Shown here in pieces: positions 1,330 to 11,108 of a DNA stretch of 11,108 bases. Numbering within the stretch: the first letter of the stretch is position 1; every line of letters starts with the position of its first letter. A program made the position numbers and the translations under genes. Below the pieces are notes generated by a model. That model searched no databases and was not told the DNA's origin. It saw only the letters and a list, made by a program, of their open reading frames with translations. The stretch comes from a virus, in UHGV virus genome UHGV-0246901, one strand, 5' to 3'.

Positions 1330-1337
1330 GTTGACTA

Positions 1338-1363
1338 GGAAGCCTCTTCGGAGGCTCCTTTTT
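1338..1363 (+). terminator. rho-independent terminator T1
   Basis: GC-rich stem AGCCTC(1341-1346)/GAGGCT(1351-1356) with TTCG tetraloop, followed by CC and T5 (1359-1363), immediately after the stop of 889-1329. Confidence 0.7.
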
Positions 1364-1390
1364 AAAAGGTCTTTAAACAGGGTCTTTTAA
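1359..1390 (+). repeat. M motif copy 1: TTTTTAAAAGGTCTTTAAACAGGGTCTTTTAA (tandem GGTCTTT)
   Basis: GGTCTTT at 1368-1374 and 1381-1387; whole 32-mer repeated at 1609-1640 with one indel and one substitution; in both copies it starts at the T-run that follows a hairpin. Confidence 0.55.
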
Positions 1391-1391
1391 T

Positions 1392-1478
1392 AAGGTAGGA
1401 TAGGGTGGTGTATGGTTTGGTAAGGTTGTGTAAGGTAAGGTATGGGTAGTTAATCGGAGCTACATTAAAATTCGATTA
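1392..1478 (+). repeat. GT5-H unit 2: pentameric tract 1392-1441 plus stem-loop 1451-1478
   Basis: Ten phased pentamers, nine ending GT; stem TAATCG(1451-1456)/CGATTA(1473-1478), loop GAGCTACATTAAAATT. Stem sequence differs completely from unit 1 but pairing is preserved. Confidence 0.7.
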
Positions 1479-1517
1479 CATCACTTAAGAGTCTTCTAAG
1501 AGGATTTTTAAGTGATG
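1479..1517 (+). repeat. IR-A copy 2: CATCACTTAA / 19 nt / TTAAGTGATG
   Basis: Arms 1479-1488 and 1508-1517 identical to copy 1; spacer GAGTCTTCTAAGAGGATTT differs at 2 positions, one of which converts a G-U to an A-U pair in the inner helix. Confidence 0.7.
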
Positions 1518-1528
1518 TGGGGCGAGGC

Positions 1529-1608
1529 TCGGTGAGGTGGGCTAAGGTATAGCGCGGTGTTGTTCGGTATGGGTAGTTAGTCTCAGCTACATTAAAATGA
1601 GACTTACC
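1529..1608 (+). repeat. GT5-H unit 3: degenerate pentameric tract 1529-1568 plus stem-loop 1572-1608
   Basis: Same 5-nt phase but only about 6 of 10 pentamers end in GT; stem AGTCTCA(1579-1585)/TGAGACT(1598-1604) with outer GGTA/TACC, loop GCTACATTAAAA; followed by T5, so this copy is terminator-like. Confidence 0.6.
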
Positions 1609-1640
1609 TTTTTAAAAGGTCTTTAAAAGGGTCTTTTAAC
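1609..1640 (+). repeat. M motif copy 2: TTTTTAAAAGGTCTTTAAAAGGGTCTTTTAAC
   Basis: GGTCTTT at 1618-1624 and 1630-1636; near-identical to 1359-1390. Confidence 0.55.
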
Positions 1641-1732
1641 AAGGTATTGTATGGTGTAGTTTGGTTAGGTATGGTTAGGTGTGGTAAGGTAAGGTATGGA
1701 AGGATGGCAGTAGCCTTATAAAAAATCTGCCA
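1641..1732 (+). repeat. GT5-H unit 4: (NNGGT)11 tract 1641-1695 plus stem-loop 1705-1732
   Basis: Eleven consecutive pentamers all ending GT (aaggt attgt atggt gtagt ttggt taggt atggt taggt gtggt aaggt aaggt); stem TGGCAG(1705-1710)/CTGCCA(1727-1732), loop TAGCCTTATAAAAAAT. Confidence 0.7.
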
Positions 1733-1750
1733 AATAAGCTATAAAATCTG

Positions 1751-1785
1751 TTGACAAGTCAGGTGTTATAGCTTATTTTTATACT
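1751..1785 (+). promoter_or_regulatory. candidate sigma70-like promoter P2 (TTGACA 1751-1756; -10 TATTTT 1774-1779 at 17 nt, or TATACT 1780-1785 at 23 nt)
   Basis: Consensus -35 hexamer in the same TG-TTGACA context as P1, but no consensus -10 at correct spacing; sits ~40 nt upstream of the operon starting at 1824. Confidence 0.35.
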
Positions 1786-1823
1786 CAATGTAATACAAAA
1801 TTTAATATAACTTTGAGGTCGTT

Positions 1824-3603: not shown

Positions 3604-3864
3604 ATGAAAATTGAACACTGCTATGAGTCTGACGGAACACCTATCCGTTGTCCACATTGTGGGTGTACAGACTTGCAAGGTGAAGTTCATGTGATTGTTA
3701 ATGGTCATATAGCTGAAGAAAGTACTACATGTGTTGGTTGTGGTGAGCAACTATCATTCTGGGCTTATGGTTCATACCAACCTGCACCACACTTAATCTA
3801 CCATAGCAATAAAGCTGTGAAGAATGTTATCAACTGGTTTATTAAGAAAGGATTTACAAAATGA
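3604..3864 (+). CDS. zinc-ribbon-like small protein (86 aa)
   Basis: TAAATG junction with upstream gene; two CxxC pairs (CPHC and CVGC) ~26 aa apart; stop overlaps frd start (ATGA). Confidence 0.7.
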   Translation: MKIEHCYESDGTPIRCPHCGCTDLQGEVHVIVNGHIAEESTTCVGCGEQLSFWAYGSYQPAPHLIYHSNKAVKNVINWFIKKGFTK

Positions 3865-4406
3865 TTAAATTAATCTTTGCAAGTGGTGAAAATGGTGAGT
3901 TTGGTACTCCAACTGGTATGCCGTGGCCTCGACATAAGCAAGATATGCAAGAGTTTAAGAGACTCACTAAAAACAACTTAGTAGTGATGGGTAATGAGAC
4001 TTTCAAGACTCTGGGTAGTAAACCTTTACCAGAACGTGCAAACCTCATCTTAACAAACTCTGTACCATACTTAGGCATAGACTTTGGCAAAGATGAGGTA
4101 ATGTATGCTAAGGCCAGCAAAGAATCCTTTGGAGCATTTTTGAAGTATCTCGATAGCTCTATTGATGAAGATATCTTTGTAATTGGTGGTGCAGGTGTCC
4201 TTGTCAATGCTTTACCATATGCTGGTGTAGTTTTCCATACAGTTTTCCATAAAGTTACTGAAGAGGCCACTGTGTATTTACCTTTTGAAAACTTCTTTGA
4301 GAAGCTGTATGATAACCGTGTATTTACAAAGGTACAGTCAAAACCATCAGAGGATGGTAAAGCAACCTTTGAAATTTATGTTCCACAAGTAAAAGGACAC
4401 TTTTGA
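3861..4406 (+). CDS. frd: dihydrofolate reductase
   Basis: N-terminal MIKLIFA, MPW, FKRLT, VVMG..TF..LG..PLP.R.N.IL and IGG motifs align with bacterial FolA and phage T4 Frd; directly upstream of thymidylate synthase as in T4. Confidence 0.9.
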   Translation: MIKLIFASGENGEFGTPTGMPWPRHKQDMQEFKRLTKNNLVVMGNETFKTLGSKPLPERANLILTNSVPYLGIDFGKDEVMYAKASKESFGAFLKYLDSSIDEDIFVIGGAGVLVNALPYAGVVFHTVFHKVTEEATVYLPFENFFEKLYDNRVFTKVQSKPSEDGKATFEIYVPQVKGHF

Positions 4407-4407
4407 T

Positions 4408-5307
4408 ATGTCACAAGCAGATACAAGTTACAAAAATATCCTGAACCATGTTTTATCCGTTGGTGAACTGCGTACTACAAGAACTGGAGATGTTATCTCT
4501 GCATTTGCTCCACCACAGTTTCGCTTTGATATGCGTACTGGTTTTCCACTCTTAACATCTAAACAGGTGTTTACACGGCAAGTTATTGGGGAAGCTTTAT
4601 GGTTCCTGAACGGTGAGAATAAGCTTGGTGAACTTCGTTACCGTACTTGGGGTGAAAATGATGGGGAACGCTGGACTATCTGGTCAGATGATTTTAAACG
4701 CTGGTTAAGCTCTAATTATTCCTCTGAACAAGACTGGTTAGAGGATGCAGGTGGTAGAATCTACGGGGTTCAGTGGAGAAACTTTGAGGGTCATAATGGT
4801 TGTGTTGTAGACCAGTTAGAAACCTTAGTAACGAAGATGAAAGGTGATATCACAGACCGTTACATGCTTGTTAATGCTTGGAATGCAGCAGATATTTCAG
4901 CTAACTCGATGGCTTTAGCACCTTGCCATGTTCTGTTTCAGATTTATATCACTAATGAAGGTGAAGTTGACTTACAATGGTATCAGCGTTCTGTAGACAC
5001 CTTTTTAGGACTTCCGTTTAATATTGCGTCTTATGGCTTCATCTTAGAAGTTCTTTGTAAGATGACTGGATACACTCCACGATACTTGATAGGTGTCTTT
5101 GGAGATACTCAGATTTATCATAACCATATGAAGCAGGTCTATGAACTGATGAACAATGAAGAGTTTCATGCACCTACTTTTGAGATTGGTGTACAGCTTA
5201 ACACTTTAAGTGACTTAAAACATCTTACTGCAAGTGACTTTATTGGTGGAATTATCAACTACCAACATGCAGGGAAGATTGAAGCACCTCTGTCAGTAGG
5301 CAAGTAA
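4408..5307 (+). CDS. td: thymidylate synthase (ThyA type)
   Basis: RTGD, LWFLNG, NAWN, ALAPCH (catalytic Cys), QRS.D.FLGLPFNIASY and GDTQIYHNH motifs match ThyA-family thymidylate synthase; ORF is uninterrupted. Confidence 0.95.
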   Translation: MSQADTSYKNILNHVLSVGELRTTRTGDVISAFAPPQFRFDMRTGFPLLTSKQVFTRQVIGEALWFLNGENKLGELRYRTWGENDGERWTIWSDDFKRWLSSNYSSEQDWLEDAGGRIYGVQWRNFEGHNGCVVDQLETLVTKMKGDITDRYMLVNAWNAADISANSMALAPCHVLFQIYITNEGEVDLQWYQRSVDTFLGLPFNIASYGFILEVLCKMTGYTPRYLIGVFGDTQIYHNHMKQVYELMNNEEFHAPTFEIGVQLNTLSDLKHLTASDFIGGIINYQHAGKIEAPLSVGK

Positions 5308-5350
5308 AACAAAAAAGGCTCCCGTAAAAAGGAGCCTTAAACTTTATTTT
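5305..5350. terminator. bidirectional rho-independent terminator between convergent operons
   Basis: Stem AAGGCTCC(5315-5322)/GGAGCCTT(5331-5338), 8-nt loop. On the minus strand it is followed by a long T-run (complement of A-rich 5305-5314), a strong terminator for the gene ending at 5344; on the plus strand followed by AAACTTTATTTTT (weaker). Confidence 0.7.
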
Positions 5351-5715
5351 TCAGTATTCTTTGTGTTCTTTTCAGTAATAGCTTGGAGGGCTGATACTGA
5401 TTGAGCCAGATTGTTCACACTGTCAGAAAATTTATCAAGAGTTTTGGTAAGTTTTGCGTTTTCACCCTTAACATTCTCTAACTGAACTTTCTGGTTCTCC
5501 ATCCCTAGCTGAATCAGTCTCATGTCAGACTGTAAATCACGAATAGCTGAATAGTTACTTTTGGAATAATTATCCAACTGCTGTAACTTTGTTGTGACAG
5601 ACACTTCTTGTTTACCACTTGAAACTTGCATCGTGGTATACATCCCAATAACACTAAAAATACCAACTACAATTGCACCAATATTATTTTTAAAAGCTTC
5701 CTCTAGCCACTTCAT
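5344..5715 (-). CDS. membrane-anchored coiled-coil protein (123 aa); possible i-spanin-like or holin/exclusion-type protein
   Basis: N-terminal hydrophobic helix IGAIVVGIFSVIGMYTT followed by Q/L/N/K-rich heptad-like sequence; strong SD GGGGGAG; TAAATG junction with upstream gene. Function is a guess from topology only. Confidence 0.65.
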   Translation of the reverse strand: MKWLEEAFKNNIGAIVVGIFSVIGMYTTMQVSSGKQEVSVTTKLQQLDNYSKSNYSAIRDLQSDMRLIQLGMENQKVQLENVKGENAKLTKTLDKFSDSVNNLAQSVSALQAITEKNTKNTEK

Positions 5716-5910
5716 TTATTTCTCCCCCTTAAAAGCTTTTTCTAAGTTATCTACGAACTCATCATCAATAGGTGTGTCTGTTTTACTCGCAAGGTATCTT
5801 GCAAGCCTAAAGAACACTTTCTCAATCATGTATTCACTTAGAAGGGATAAAATGAGTTTCCAGAAGAAGCTACCTAGATTTTTTAGAAGAATTGCTAGGA
5901 TTGTAGGCAT
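5716..5910 (-). CDS. small membrane protein (64 aa); possible holin-like
   Basis: Hydrophobic segment ILAILLKNLGSFFWKLILSLL and acidic C-terminus; SD GAGGTG ~5 nt upstream; first gene after a sigma70-like promoter. Confidence 0.55.
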   Translation of the reverse strand: MPTILAILLKNLGSFFWKLILSLLSEYMIEKVFFRLARYLASKTDTPIDDEFVDNLEKAFKGEK

Positions 5911-5989: not shown

Positions 5990-8380
5990 TTAAGCAGTTC
6001 TTACCCAAGCCATTAACTTGTAGAACTGGTTAGTAACACTAAATGCTGAACCAGAACCTGTACCACCAGTGTTACCACTAACTGTATGAGTGTGAGCACC
6101 GATACCTACAGAGTGGGTGTGAGCACCAGTGTTACTTGTAGTACCAGACCATGTGTGTGTATGGTTACCAGTTGTGTTAGTGTTAGGGAATTTGTTATCA
6201 GTTCTGTCAAGCCAGTCAAGAGTTCTTGTCTTATTGTTACCAATAGTGGTATATCCGTACTGAGCATCACCACCATTAACCAATAGCAGACCTAAGTGGT
6301 GAGCGTGGTTACCAGCAGCACTTGTTGTACCACTTACAGAGTGAGTATGACCACCAGTGCTATTAGTGTTCTTCGTACCATAATCAAAAGATGAAGTGGT
6401 AGCAGAGAAACTATGGGTGTGTGAAGGCAGATTACCAACAGCTAACGTCACAGAGTCTGAACCACCTGTTGTAGCAACATCTGAACCGTTTGCTGCTGCA
6501 ATCCTGATAGTTCTACCAACACCATTGTTCAGGTACGTCCAAGTTAACCCAGGAAGTGCTGTATTAGGGTCAACGTTGCTGTTAAACCACGTTACAATAC
6601 CTACTGGATAGATTTTATTAAGGTCTGTAGAGTCACTTACTGCCTGTGCAATCTTCTGGTCAGTTTCAGCTTTAGTGTATGCACCAATATCTGAAGGGGT
6701 TGGTTTAAAGGCAGTTGTATAAATCTGTGCTTCTCCGGCATAGTCACCATTTTTGTCATAGGCATAGGTAAATGTTGCCAGTCCATTTGAGCCATACACA
6801 AAAGAGATTCCTCTTGCATGTGCAGCAGTCTTATTAGAGTGAGCAACATGAATTGCCAATTCTTTCAGTCCACTAGTAACCGCATTGTTTCTGACAAAAC
6901 CTGAATATCCAAGATTAAAACCTGAAGGGTTTTCAAGGTTATCTACAGAGACAGTCATTAAGGATTGGTTTAATAACTGAGTTTTAACAAAATATCTAGC
7001 ATCTAAGTTAGACCAATCAGAAGGTTGAACTTGACCAGTAATGGTTAGATTCTTATTAGCCTTAATCGCTGAAGGCATAAGGGTAATTTGAGTCCCAGAG
7101 TAGCTGTTGTTTAAGGCTACATCAGTAGAATTTGTGCCACCTACACCTACCCACCACCTAGATACATTCGCAGTATCAACACCACGGATATATTGTGGCT
7201 GCCCCTGTGTCAAGTTCCTCAATACTAGACCTTCATTGTTAGATACAATAGTCTGCACATTTGTAAAAGTGTTAGCCACATTAACCTTAGCAAGATTACT
7301 CAAAGTAGCTGCTGGAATATATCTAGAGTCGATATTAGCCCAATCAGAAGGTTGGACTTGACCAGTGATTCTAAAATTATTGTTTACTGCGACATGCCCA
7401 TTGTCAAGTCTAAGATAAGAACCATACACATAGTTGCTGATGAATACAGCAGGTGTATTATCACCATTTCCTACATACCACTTACCAGAACCATCATTAG
7501 CTTCGGCTTTAACGTATAGTGCAGCATTTGCTACAGTATTTTTCAACCTTAAAGCAGCACTATCACTGATAATAAGTAGGTTTCTGCTAAACGTGTTAGT
7601 GCCAGTGAAATTGTTATTGGCAGCTAACTGTGCAAATCTCTGATTAGCTGCTGTCTGAGTAAAGTATCTAGCATCTAAGTTAGAGAAGTCAGAAGGTTGC
7701 ACTTGACCATTGATTGATAAAGACCTATTAAAAGAAGCAGCCGTGCCTAGAGTGAGGATGGAACCTAGTTTACTCTCGATTTGAACATCAAGACTACCCC
7801 TAATCAGGTTCCCAATAGCCCAAGTTTTTTCATTGCTTGCATCCCTACCTACAATAGCAGAGTATGCACTATCCCCACTCACAGGAGATTTTAGTGTTAA
7901 CTGTTCCCCATTTGCTACAATGGTCTGTTTAGAGTTAAATGTGTTTGTAACAGCAAGCCTTGCGTATCTTGCATCATTCTCTTCATTAGTTCTCATCCCA
8001 AGTTCATTAGGACTTGGCTTATTCAGAGTATGATAAACAGTTGCCGACCTTGAAGCGTCTGCAATAGTTAGTTTAAGGCCGTTTGCGTTGATTTTAAAAG
8101 TCTTTAAAACATCCCCAATAGTAATCTCAGAAGAGCCTGTAGGGTCAAAGACTGCCTTGCCACCGTAAAGTAACTTAACAATTCCTAAGTCACCCTTCAT
8201 AGTGCTACCAACAATCTGAACAAATCTTTCAAGTTTAAAAGATGCTAAGAAGTCTTGATAGGTCATTCGACGGTCTTCATCACCCAGCATTTCAGGTCTC
8301 TTTTTAACTCTGACATGAAGAAGGTCATCTGAATGGATTGTATCGATTGAGTTTAATTCACTCAACTTGTAATCTGCCAT
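5990..8380 (-). CDS. tail fibre protein (796 aa) with collar-like domain and His-X-His repeats
   Basis: Three internal repeats each ending GQVQPSD(W/F)xN(L/I)DxRY; C-terminal segment resembling the phage tail-collar domain (LPGLTW...GNLPSHTHSF); 6-7 HxH motifs (HTHS, HAHH, HTHT...); C-terminus ...MAWVRTA shared with the 395-aa paralogue. Confidence 0.85.
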   Translation of the reverse strand: MADYKLSELNSIDTIHSDDLLHVRVKKRPEMLGDEDRRMTYQDFLASFKLERFVQIVGSTMKGDLGIVKLLYGGKAVFDPTGSSEITIGDVLKTFKINANGLKLTIADASRSATVYHTLNKPSPNELGMRTNEENDARYARLAVTNTFNSKQTIVANGEQLTLKSPVSGDSAYSAIVGRDASNEKTWAIGNLIRGSLDVQIESKLGSILTLGTAASFNRSLSINGQVQPSDFSNLDARYFTQTAANQRFAQLAANNNFTGTNTFSRNLLIISDSAALRLKNTVANAALYVKAEANDGSGKWYVGNGDNTPAVFISNYVYGSYLRLDNGHVAVNNNFRITGQVQPSDWANIDSRYIPAATLSNLAKVNVANTFTNVQTIVSNNEGLVLRNLTQGQPQYIRGVDTANVSRWWVGVGGTNSTDVALNNSYSGTQITLMPSAIKANKNLTITGQVQPSDWSNLDARYFVKTQLLNQSLMTVSVDNLENPSGFNLGYSGFVRNNAVTSGLKELAIHVAHSNKTAAHARGISFVYGSNGLATFTYAYDKNGDYAGEAQIYTTAFKPTPSDIGAYTKAETDQKIAQAVSDSTDLNKIYPVGIVTWFNSNVDPNTALPGLTWTYLNNGVGRTIRIAAANGSDVATTGGSDSVTLAVGNLPSHTHSFSATTSSFDYGTKNTNSTGGHTHSVSGTTSAAGNHAHHLGLLLVNGGDAQYGYTTIGNNKTRTLDWLDRTDNKFPNTNTTGNHTHTWSGTTSNTGAHTHSVGIGAHTHTVSGNTGGTGSGSAFSVTNQFYKLMAWVRTA
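6990..7716 (-). repeat. three dispersed ~50-bp direct repeats inside the 796-aa tail-fibre gene (about 6990-7045, 7314-7370, 7661-7716)
   Basis: Core CCAATCAGAAGGTTGAACTTGACCAGT (plus strand) recurs at ~335-bp spacing; first and third copies also share ATCTAGCATCTAAGTTAGA. They encode the GQVQPSDW..RY ends of three tandem protein repeats. Confidence 0.7.
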
Positions 8381-8426: not shown

Positions 8427-9614
8427 TTAAGCTGTTCTCTGCCATACATACAGGACGAAGGATGGCTGCTCAATGTTGAAAGCTTGTCCACCACCAACAC
8501 TATTAGTGTTCCCGCTATGCGTATGCTCAGAAGAAGAAACTGTTACAGTGCCATTGTGTGTATGTGAACCAATACCAACTGTGTGGCTGTGAGCACCAAT
8601 ACCAACCGTATGGTTGTGGTTACCAGTTGTATTAGTGGTAACACTGAAAGAGTGGGTGTGTGCACCAGCTACTTCACAGACAGCATCTGCTGAGTACCAT
8701 GATTGGTCATTCCTTGTAGACCAAACCATTGCAGGTCTTTCCGATAAACCACCACCTGCTTCATAGGTCAATCTGTGGTTGTGAGCACCAGCAGAACTTG
8801 TTGACCCACTACCAACATGGTTATGGTTACCAGTCGTGTTAGTGGTCTTAGTTCCATAGTCAAAAGAGTTAGTAGTCTTAGTTCCATAATCAAAAGCTGA
8901 AATTGACACCGTTGCATTATGAGTATGACCACCACCACTAAGAGACACAGAGTGAGAGTGTTGAGGCATGTTATTAACTGACAAAGTGACAGTTGAAGCA
9001 CCAAATACAGAACCTGCTGGTCTTGTGTCAGAGTCATAACCAACCAATGCTCTACCCTTTGAAACTAACTCCCAAGTACCTCCACAAATTAAATATGTAG
9101 AGGGGTTTGCAGAGTTCATGGAAAGATGGATAGTACCTACTGGATAGGAAGCCTGAACAGCCTTGTACAAGTTATTTACTGCTCTTGCTGTAGCGTACTT
9201 ATCTGCATCCTCATTATAAAGGTTAGATGTTGTCCAGTTCTGAACATTACTCAATCCTACCTGTGCCTTAGTTGTATTGTGTGGGTTGCTCTTGTCCTGA
9301 ATATGCTGTTGAACAAGGTTATTAACCTCTTCTGAAGACATAATCTGTAGATTTGCTCTTGCCTCAGCTACATTAACAACATCTGATAAGTTATTTGCAG
9401 CAACTAACTGAAGAGCATTAATAACATTATCTAAACCAATTTGTGTTTTAGTAACACCATGAGGGTTATTTCTTAGGCTTGAGTGTGGAGCAAGTAATTG
9501 CTCAAGAGTACATCTCTTATCCTCAATACCTTGCTTAAGATGGAAGATATCACTAAGGTCAATTGGTAAGGCTGCTTGAGGCAAGGCACTAATTTGAATT
9601 TCACCTACCGCCAT
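8427..9614 (-). CDS. tail fibre protein (395 aa), paralogue of the 796-aa protein
   Basis: N-terminal repeats NPHGVTKTQIGLDNV / NPHNTTKAQVGLSNV (phage tail-fibre repeat-like); collar-like segment ICGGTWELVSKGRALVG...NNMPQHSHSVS; nine HxH motifs; C-terminus ...VWQRTA; SD AGGAG ~8 nt upstream. Confidence 0.85.
   Translation of the reverse strand: MAVGEIQISALPQAALPIDLSDIFHLKQGIEDKRCTLEQLLAPHSSLRNNPHGVTKTQIGLDNVINALQLVAANNLSDVVNVAEARANLQIMSSEEVNNLVQQHIQDKSNPHNTTKAQVGLSNVQNWTTSNLYNEDADKYATARAVNNLYKAVQASYPVGTIHLSMNSANPSTYLICGGTWELVSKGRALVGYDSDTRPAGSVFGASTVTLSVNNMPQHSHSVSLSGGGHTHNATVSISAFDYGTKTTNSFDYGTKTTNTTGNHNHVGSGSTSSAGAHNHRLTYEAGGGLSERPAMVWSTRNDQSWYSADAVCEVAGAHTHSFSVTTNTTGNHNHTVGIGAHSHTVGIGSHTHNGTVTVSSSEHTHSGNTNSVGGGQAFNIEQPSFVLYVWQRTA
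8841..8900 (-). repeat. in-frame 30-bp tandem duplication within the 395-aa tail-fibre gene
   Basis: 8841-8870 and 8871-8900 match at 26 of 30 positions and encode a tandem SFDYGTKTTN repeat; the 796-aa paralogue has a single FDYGTKNTN. Confidence 0.8.
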
Positions 9615-9616
9615 TA

Positions 9617-11108
<1,492 letters not shown>

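Follow-up and report, generated by a model that had tools for sequence, protein, structure and literature searches.

The 30-bp tandem repeat in the short tail fibre gene of the analysed phage DNA (UHGV virus genome UHGV-0246901, a stretch of 11,108 nucleotides, referred to as the window) very probably represents two ancient, conserved stem modules of a gp37-type needle, which are paired one to one with modules on the returning strand and whose number changes by block exchange. As such, the feature is known biology: both the fibre and the genus are known, and a structure solved in 2010 already contains it. The one-to-one rule is a small addition.

The gene that carries the repeat (8427..9614, minus strand) encodes a protein of 395 aa with an N-terminal baseplate-binding and helical part, a collar domain, an HxH needle and a head. 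Tail fibre genes annotated in Felixounavirus phages of E. coli are 94-98% identical to it at the nucleotide level, the close matches including LF82P9, KhF1/KhF3, L27 and VpaE1 derivatives, and by its sequence the source of the window is a Felix O1-like E. coli phage of the genus Felixounavirus. The gene belongs to a row of minus-strand ORFs encoding proteins of 285, 100, 395 and 796 aa. The 285-aa ORF (9919-10776, minus strand) matches a PHROG of baseplate proteins (E=8e-175) and is followed by the 100-aa ORF (9617-9919, minus strand), while the 796-aa product (5990..8380, minus strand) is assigned as the long tail fibre paralogue by the Pfam domains gp37_trimer, Phage_fiber and Gp10_C, by its map of HxH motifs and by its likeness to gp27 of phage Bas63.

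Just downstream of the long fibre gene there are two small minus-strand ORFs (5344-5715, 123 aa, and 5716-5910, 64 aa) that match PHROGs of unknown function and are located where other phages have fibre chaperones. A GC-rich hairpin at 5315-5338, terminator-like on both strands, is the exact meeting point of the minus-strand fibre operon and a plus-strand block comprising a dihydrofolate reductase-like (3861-4406) and a thymidylate synthase-like (4408-5307) ORF.

Repeats of another kind were observed in a non-coding 490-bp stretch at 1330-1823 (plus strand), between the ORFs at 889-1329 and 1824-2207. A direct repeat of ~86 nt (1360-1445 and 1609-1694, 74%) is made up of TTTTAAAAGGTCTTTAAA..GGGTCTTTTAA followed by G/T-rich GGTAAGGT tracts, and a 33-nt repeat (1439-1471 and 1566-1598, 91%) and a 20-nt palindrome (1478-1518) are also present. 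Searches for tRNAs and for Rfam families gave no matches in this stretch.

The 395-aa protein is recognized by homology as a short tail fibre with a C-terminal tip like that of T4 gp37, composed of a collar, an HxH needle and a head. Residues 154-261 match the Pfam collar domain Gp10_C (PF21939) with 68.1 bits (cut-off 27, E=2e-18); the collar, of the gp10/gp11/gp12/gp37 type, is split by the needle insertion and closed by a conserved C-terminal strand, EQPSFVLYVWQRTA. HxH motifs form a series on both the outgoing (aa 219, 230, 264, 278) and the returning (aa 319, 333, 342, 351, 364) segments, on either side of the variable head. A trimeric, six-stranded needle with axial metal ions is supported for this fibre by homology and by the description of the Bas63 fibres from cryo-EM. 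The AlphaFold2 monomer model of the 395 aa, based on a 27-sequence alignment, has a mean pLDDT of 46.7 and a pTM of 0.19, and is of no use for an obligate trimer.

A diverged peptide repeat, NNPHGVTKTQIGLDNV and SNPHNTTKAQVGLSNV, was noticed within the N-terminal half of the short fibre, at aa 49-64 and 109-124, and there is a weak DNA repeat near it (9156-9182 and 9375-9401; aa 72-80 and 145-153). The N-terminal peptide repeats are probably the counterpart of the 'triple helix and turn' motifs, which recur in the Bas63 fibres.

An in-frame 30-bp tandem repeat in the HxH-rich C-terminal tip of the 395-aa fibre had been reported in the initial annotation, and both repeat finders and shuffling confirm it. 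Tandem Repeats Finder places it at 8838..8896 (period 30, 2.0 copies, 93% matches, score 104), and a second repeat finder at 8838-8866 and 8868-8896 (93%). When the window was shuffled 300 times, no period-30 match exceeded 21/30, compared to 27/30 observed, so a chance repeat is ruled out. The coordinates initially proposed, 8841-8900 with 26/30 matching positions, are right as to the repeat and wrong as to the register, being 3 nt off, where the identity is 24/30; the repeat in codon register is 8838-8897, and its units share 27 of 30 bases and 9 of 10 residues, the longest exact run being 14. Unit 1 (aa 240-249; 8868..8897, minus strand) encodes AFDYGTKTTN, and unit 2 (aa 250-259; 8838..8867, minus strand) SFDYGTKTTN; the latter peptide, claimed to be encoded twice, is thus found in unit 2, while unit 1 begins with Ala. 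The statement that the paralogue has one copy is correct, as the 796-aa fibre has a lone ascending unit, SFDYGTKNTN, at 6362..6391 (minus strand).

At positions where the two units have identical residues, 7 of 9 codons are identical too, compared to 4.2 expected from the codon usage of the fibre genes (P=0.064, not significant). The same-codon rate at such positions in other clades is 43%. Most of the DNA similarity between the units thus appears to be explained by the conservation of the encoded peptide.

The phmmer search against PDB has matched the 395-aa fibre with the tip of T4 gp37 (2XGF chain A, E=5e-26; query 146-367, chain 18-228). With the T4 numbering anchored on residues named in Islam et al. 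2019 (H929, H931, I933, N937, G921, G964 and F970), the two units align with a tandem 10-residue pair in T4 gp37, unit 1 with S891-S900 and unit 2 with S901-N910. In T4, residues 891-910 are the proximal stem of the needle domain D11 (882-1009), and the returning strand has H980, H989 and H998, that is, two 9-residue steps. The tip residues of T4 gp37 that bind or contact the receptor are 929-959 (Islam et al. 2019), equivalent to the head at aa ~281-318 here, and the initial assignment of the repeat to the receptor-binding part has to be replaced by the proximal needle stem.

A second tandem repeat was found in the same gene by Tandem Repeats Finder (8555-8618, period 27) and also by the second repeat finder. 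It covers two descending partner modules, HNHTVGIGA (aa 333-341; 8592..8618, minus strand) and HSHTVGIGS (aa 342-350; 8565..8591, minus strand), each being one 9-residue HxH step, and these are identical at 22/27 nt. The long fibre has a lone descending 9-residue step, HTHSVGIGA (6095..6121, minus strand), matching its one unit. Hence the numbers of units and 9-residue steps are 1/1 in the 796-aa paralogue, and 2/2 in the 395-aa fibre, Felix O1 and T4 gp37. The same equality is observed for proteins of the nataliec type (3/3), those of the Citrobacter phage Moogle type (4/4) and those of Erwinia phages, including phiEa21-4 (0/0).

The comparison was extended to 270 distinct proteins, drawn from the best 240 of ~2000 homologues and from a second search seeded with the long-fibre tip. 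On the units-versus-steps diagonal there are 255 of them (0/0 in 18 proteins, 1/1 in 57, 2/2 in 150, 3/3 in 16, 4/4 in 14), the independent changes of copy number behind these figures being few, probably fewer than ten, because the sampled proteins are related. Units were counted by their register with manual checks; a looser motif regular expression inflated the counts with matches outside the array. Of the 15 off-diagonal cases, 11 turned out on inspection to be parsing artefacts, caused for instance by a degenerate motif or by a unit-containing gap that is also the largest gap. They still fit the rule, as their ascending HxH gaps measure 24, 34 or 54 or, in P0029/P0035, the 9-residue steps number three. 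The other exceptions are P0049 with a degenerate return strand and P0054, P0068 and P0069 with a 12-residue variant module. No clearly unmatched architecture was seen among the 270 distinct proteins. Since the number of units equals the number of returning steps, each unit is best read as half a needle rung.

Orthologues of similar architecture, retrieved from a set of 5.8 billion proteins (P0001-P0049, down to about 56-60% identity), never have fewer than two units in the equivalent position, three or four being present in some. More distant Ounavirinae relatives, e.g. those from Erwinia phages, have no units, and side tail fibres of E. coli prophages have two to four. In 32 phage genomes with 94-98% nucleotide identity, among them several isolates under the same LF82P or NRG857CP phage name, the gene aligns over 1-1188 in one collinear piece of ungapped length. 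All 24 full-length members of three 90% clusters consist of 395 aa, all 14 members of the neighbouring cluster consist of 390 aa, and two units are present in 38/38. No copy-number variant was found in ~70 full-length close relatives, as represented by assembled genomes, so that rare variants within populations could still occur. By this comparative evidence, the tandem of two units is of ancient origin and is maintained by purifying selection.

Adjacent units are most alike in the window clade (25-27/30), followed by the 390-aa sister clade (23-25) and by the other sampled lineages (15-22). Neighbouring units in three- and four-unit arrays are also just 15-22/30 identical, and a freshly expanded array was observed in none of the sampled lineages. 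Differences between unit 1 and unit 2 are fixed across the clade, with GCT/TCT in codon 1, and ACT in unit 1 versus ACC, GCT, GAT or GGT in unit 2 in codon 8, which argues against ongoing homogenization. Unit 1 of the window is closer to unit 2 of distant relatives (22-24/30) than to their unit 1 (18-22/30), and it ends in N, as terminal units do.

The most variable part of the fibre is its indel-rich head (aa 281-318; 8661..8774, minus strand), located between the last ascending and the first descending HxH and presumed to be the receptor-contact part, where identity to relatives drops to 25-45% (alignment columns ~290-385). It is enclosed by two His boxes NTTGNHNH, the proximal one (aa 259-266; 8817..8840, minus strand) lying directly distal to unit 2, and the distal one (aa 328-335; 8610..8633, minus strand) on the other side. 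The boxes match at 21/24 nt (90% over 30 nt) and mark the two ends of the exchangeable head cassette. Mosaic relatives show breakpoints in several places. In a codon-aligned comparison, locus L010 follows the window almost exactly as far as aa ~264, bears no relation to it at 265-330 and is near-identical again from GNHxHTVGIG, its breakpoint falling at the proximal His box, while the breakpoint in L005 is inside the units. In three further loci, L013, L014 and L019 (the last with three units), the switch lies at aa ~180-200, and the entire needle, including both arrays, has been swapped together with the head as a block. Differences in copy number thus appear to arrive by block exchange of needle and head at conserved boxes, with no sign of slippage at the unit site alone. 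The position of the His boxes on both sides of the head cassette is consistent with recombination between conserved motifs in fibre genes (Tétart et al. 1998).

A protein with an altered head was observed in metagenomic data. P0140 (326 aa, from a 2.8-kb ENA contig) has an exact in-frame loss of 69 residues between the NTTGNHNH boxes, being a 'headless' version of the 395-aa fibre with both repeat arrays kept. Either a genuine deletion by recombination or a collapse during assembly could account for it.

The proposed explanation of the repeat is as follows. The units would be two copies of a 10-residue module, x-F-D-Y-G-x-K-x-T-x, on the outgoing (ascending) strand of a trimeric needle, where the chain would leave the collar, ascend along the needle, build the head and then return. 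Each unit is matched on the returning strand by a 9-residue module, H-x-H-T/S-V-x-I-G-x, whose HxH, judging from the homologous T4 gp37, would coordinate a metal ion at the three-fold axis. A unit together with its partner would constitute one needle rung, and the number of rungs would help to set the length of the needle. From the covariation and from simple sequence arithmetic we infer that each FDYG unit packs at the axial level of one HxH-VGIG module, and that a change of copy number at the unit site alone would be harmful, bringing the strands out of register, so that such variants would be purged. A register shift caused by a lone gain or loss of 30 bp would explain both the missing variants and the strict covariation. 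Copy numbers from 0 to 4 would then travel together with the partner repeats and a different head, conserved sequences (collar, FDYG units, GNHxH boxes) being the probable sites of recombination.

The initial annotation considered the repeat a recent duplication and a simple route to host-range variation. A slippage-type event in this lineage, starting from a one-copy state and leaving a length-variable site in a receptor-binding domain, would agree with the 27/30 identity of the units and their 14-nt exact run, with the single copy in the paralogue and with the variation of copy number among distant relatives. Still, such an event is highly improbable, as the pair occupies the same position in T4 gp37, Felix O1 and all orthologues of similar architecture, and is also common to prophage fibres; the excess of identical codons falls short of significance (P=0.064), and the clade shares the fixed codon differences between the units. 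Moreover, the partner repeat on the returning strand is doubled as well and is more diverged (22/27), and an event at one site cannot explain this architecture. Neither the recency nor the simple host-range route was borne out, given that ~70 full-length close relatives show no length polymorphism, the number of units is matched by the returning-strand steps, and differences in number accompany block exchange of needle and head. Copy number does vary among relatives, from 0 to 4 across the family, but it is invariant at two units in the close ones. An ancient array in which unit 1 was partly overwritten by unit 2, through gene conversion with no change of length in the ancestor of the window clade, is possible, if unlikely. 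The gradient of unit-to-unit identity (from 25-27/30 through 23-25 to 15-22), the resemblance of the window unit 1, N-ending like a terminal unit, to unit 2 of other phages (22-24/30 versus 18-22/30) and the frequency of identical codons (7/9 versus 43% in other clades) point in this direction. However, the comparison involves just 30 nt with P of about 0.04-0.06, at a site chosen for looking similar; parallel amino acid substitutions give the same pattern, and the differences fixed throughout the clade indicate that no homogenization is going on.

The number of modules could also be adaptive, acting as a length ruler for the reach of the head through the LPS layer and thereby contributing to host range. 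In the phage collection (matches H41-H100, loci L034-L037), classes of short fibres follow host groups, confounded with different head sequences: Erwinia phages have fibres of 355 aa with 0 units, phages of Salmonella and many of those of E. coli 388-395 aa with two, phages isolated mostly on E. coli K-12 or C 382 aa with three, and Citrobacter phages 402 aa with four. In addition, the authors of the Bas63 study speculate that needle length goes with the number of HxH motifs (PMC12609058). We nevertheless consider the adaptive role improbable, since the association is confounded throughout: each change of number comes with a different head sequence and a different clade, and no two sampled fibres were found to share a head while differing in the number of rungs. 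It is more doubtful still that the countable rungs, each formed by a 10-residue FDYGxKxTx and a 9-residue HxH-VGIG module, make up an evolvable ruler whose number, 0-4, is tuned to the envelope of the host group. If the ruler were real, matched changes at two sites, aided by the DNA tandem repeats at both of them, would be a real, though rare, route to host-range change, and would yield a design rule for engineering fibre length.

Under the preferred reading, that of two ancient stem modules with returning-strand partners, a plausible misreading is corrected, as a near-perfect in-frame repeat in a receptor-binding protein resembles a fresh duplication and a host-range switch. The equality of FDYG units and 9-residue HxH steps would make needle length readable from sequence and would flag mis-assembled or defective fibres. 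Moreover, the resulting map of needle and head cassette exchange in the short fibres of Felixounavirus is relevant to fibre-tip swaps for phage therapy. No description of the FDYG unit or of the one-to-one rule was found in the searchable literature, including a full-text search for 'FDYGTK', the key structural papers lying outside its coverage; PMC9659904 and PMC6669636 do not mention the repeat.

A close known system is phage Bas63, a Felixounavirus studied by cryo-EM (Sci Adv 2025, PMC12609058), whose short fibre gp26 and long fibre gp27 have gp37-like tips. It belongs to the same genus and has the same gene order, namely, a 285-aa wedge protein, a small 100-aa protein, the short fibre and the long fibre. 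The paper describes the fibres as consisting of a collar, a six-stranded HxH needle and a head, and the needle of the long fibre as shorter (PMC12609058), which agrees with the one rung in the 796-aa paralogue. The comparison is by description; the fibre density of Bas63 is reported there as too poor for residue-level modelling (PMC12609058). As distinct from our analysis, the available text counts HxH motifs, with the FDYG units and the one-to-one match absent from it.

Two families of short needle repeats are also similar. The Pfam family Phage_fiber (PF03335) has a 14-residue repeat, and HxH steps of 14 residues occur here between aa 264 and 278 and between aa 319 and 333. The GxHxH 'His boxes' of T-even gp37 (Tétart et al. 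1998) are likewise short conserved repeats of the needle, and recombination breakpoints in the fibres compared here fall at such boxes. The FDYG unit differs from both, as it consists of 10 residues, contains no histidines and has a partner of 9 rather than 14 residues.

The host-range idea of the initial annotation has a precedent in T4, where in-frame tandem duplications in gp37 are reported to expand the host range (Tétart et al. 1996, J Mol Biol 258:726). The duplicated part is reportedly a larger segment with His boxes at its ends and the receptor-recognition region inside. The units described here (aa 240-259), in contrast, lie on the proximal side of the first His box (259-266) and do not extend into the head (281-318), and the 10-residue stem module is fixed rather than newly selected. 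A host-range duplication of that type was therefore rejected for this repeat, the units being neither bounded by His boxes nor head-containing.

T4 gp37 itself differs in several respects. It has 1026 aa, including a long shaft, and depends on gp38 and gp57A, while here the tip is carried by a short fibre of 395 aa. Unit 1 is more diverged in T4 (TDLG versus FDYG), the heads are unrelated in sequence, and there are seven HxH motifs in T4, whose tip has seven iron sites, versus nine in the 395-aa fibre. Still, both tips have the same organization, with a collar, a needle and a head, a tandem 10-residue pair between the first and the second ascending HxH, and two 9-residue HxH-VGIG steps on the returning strand.
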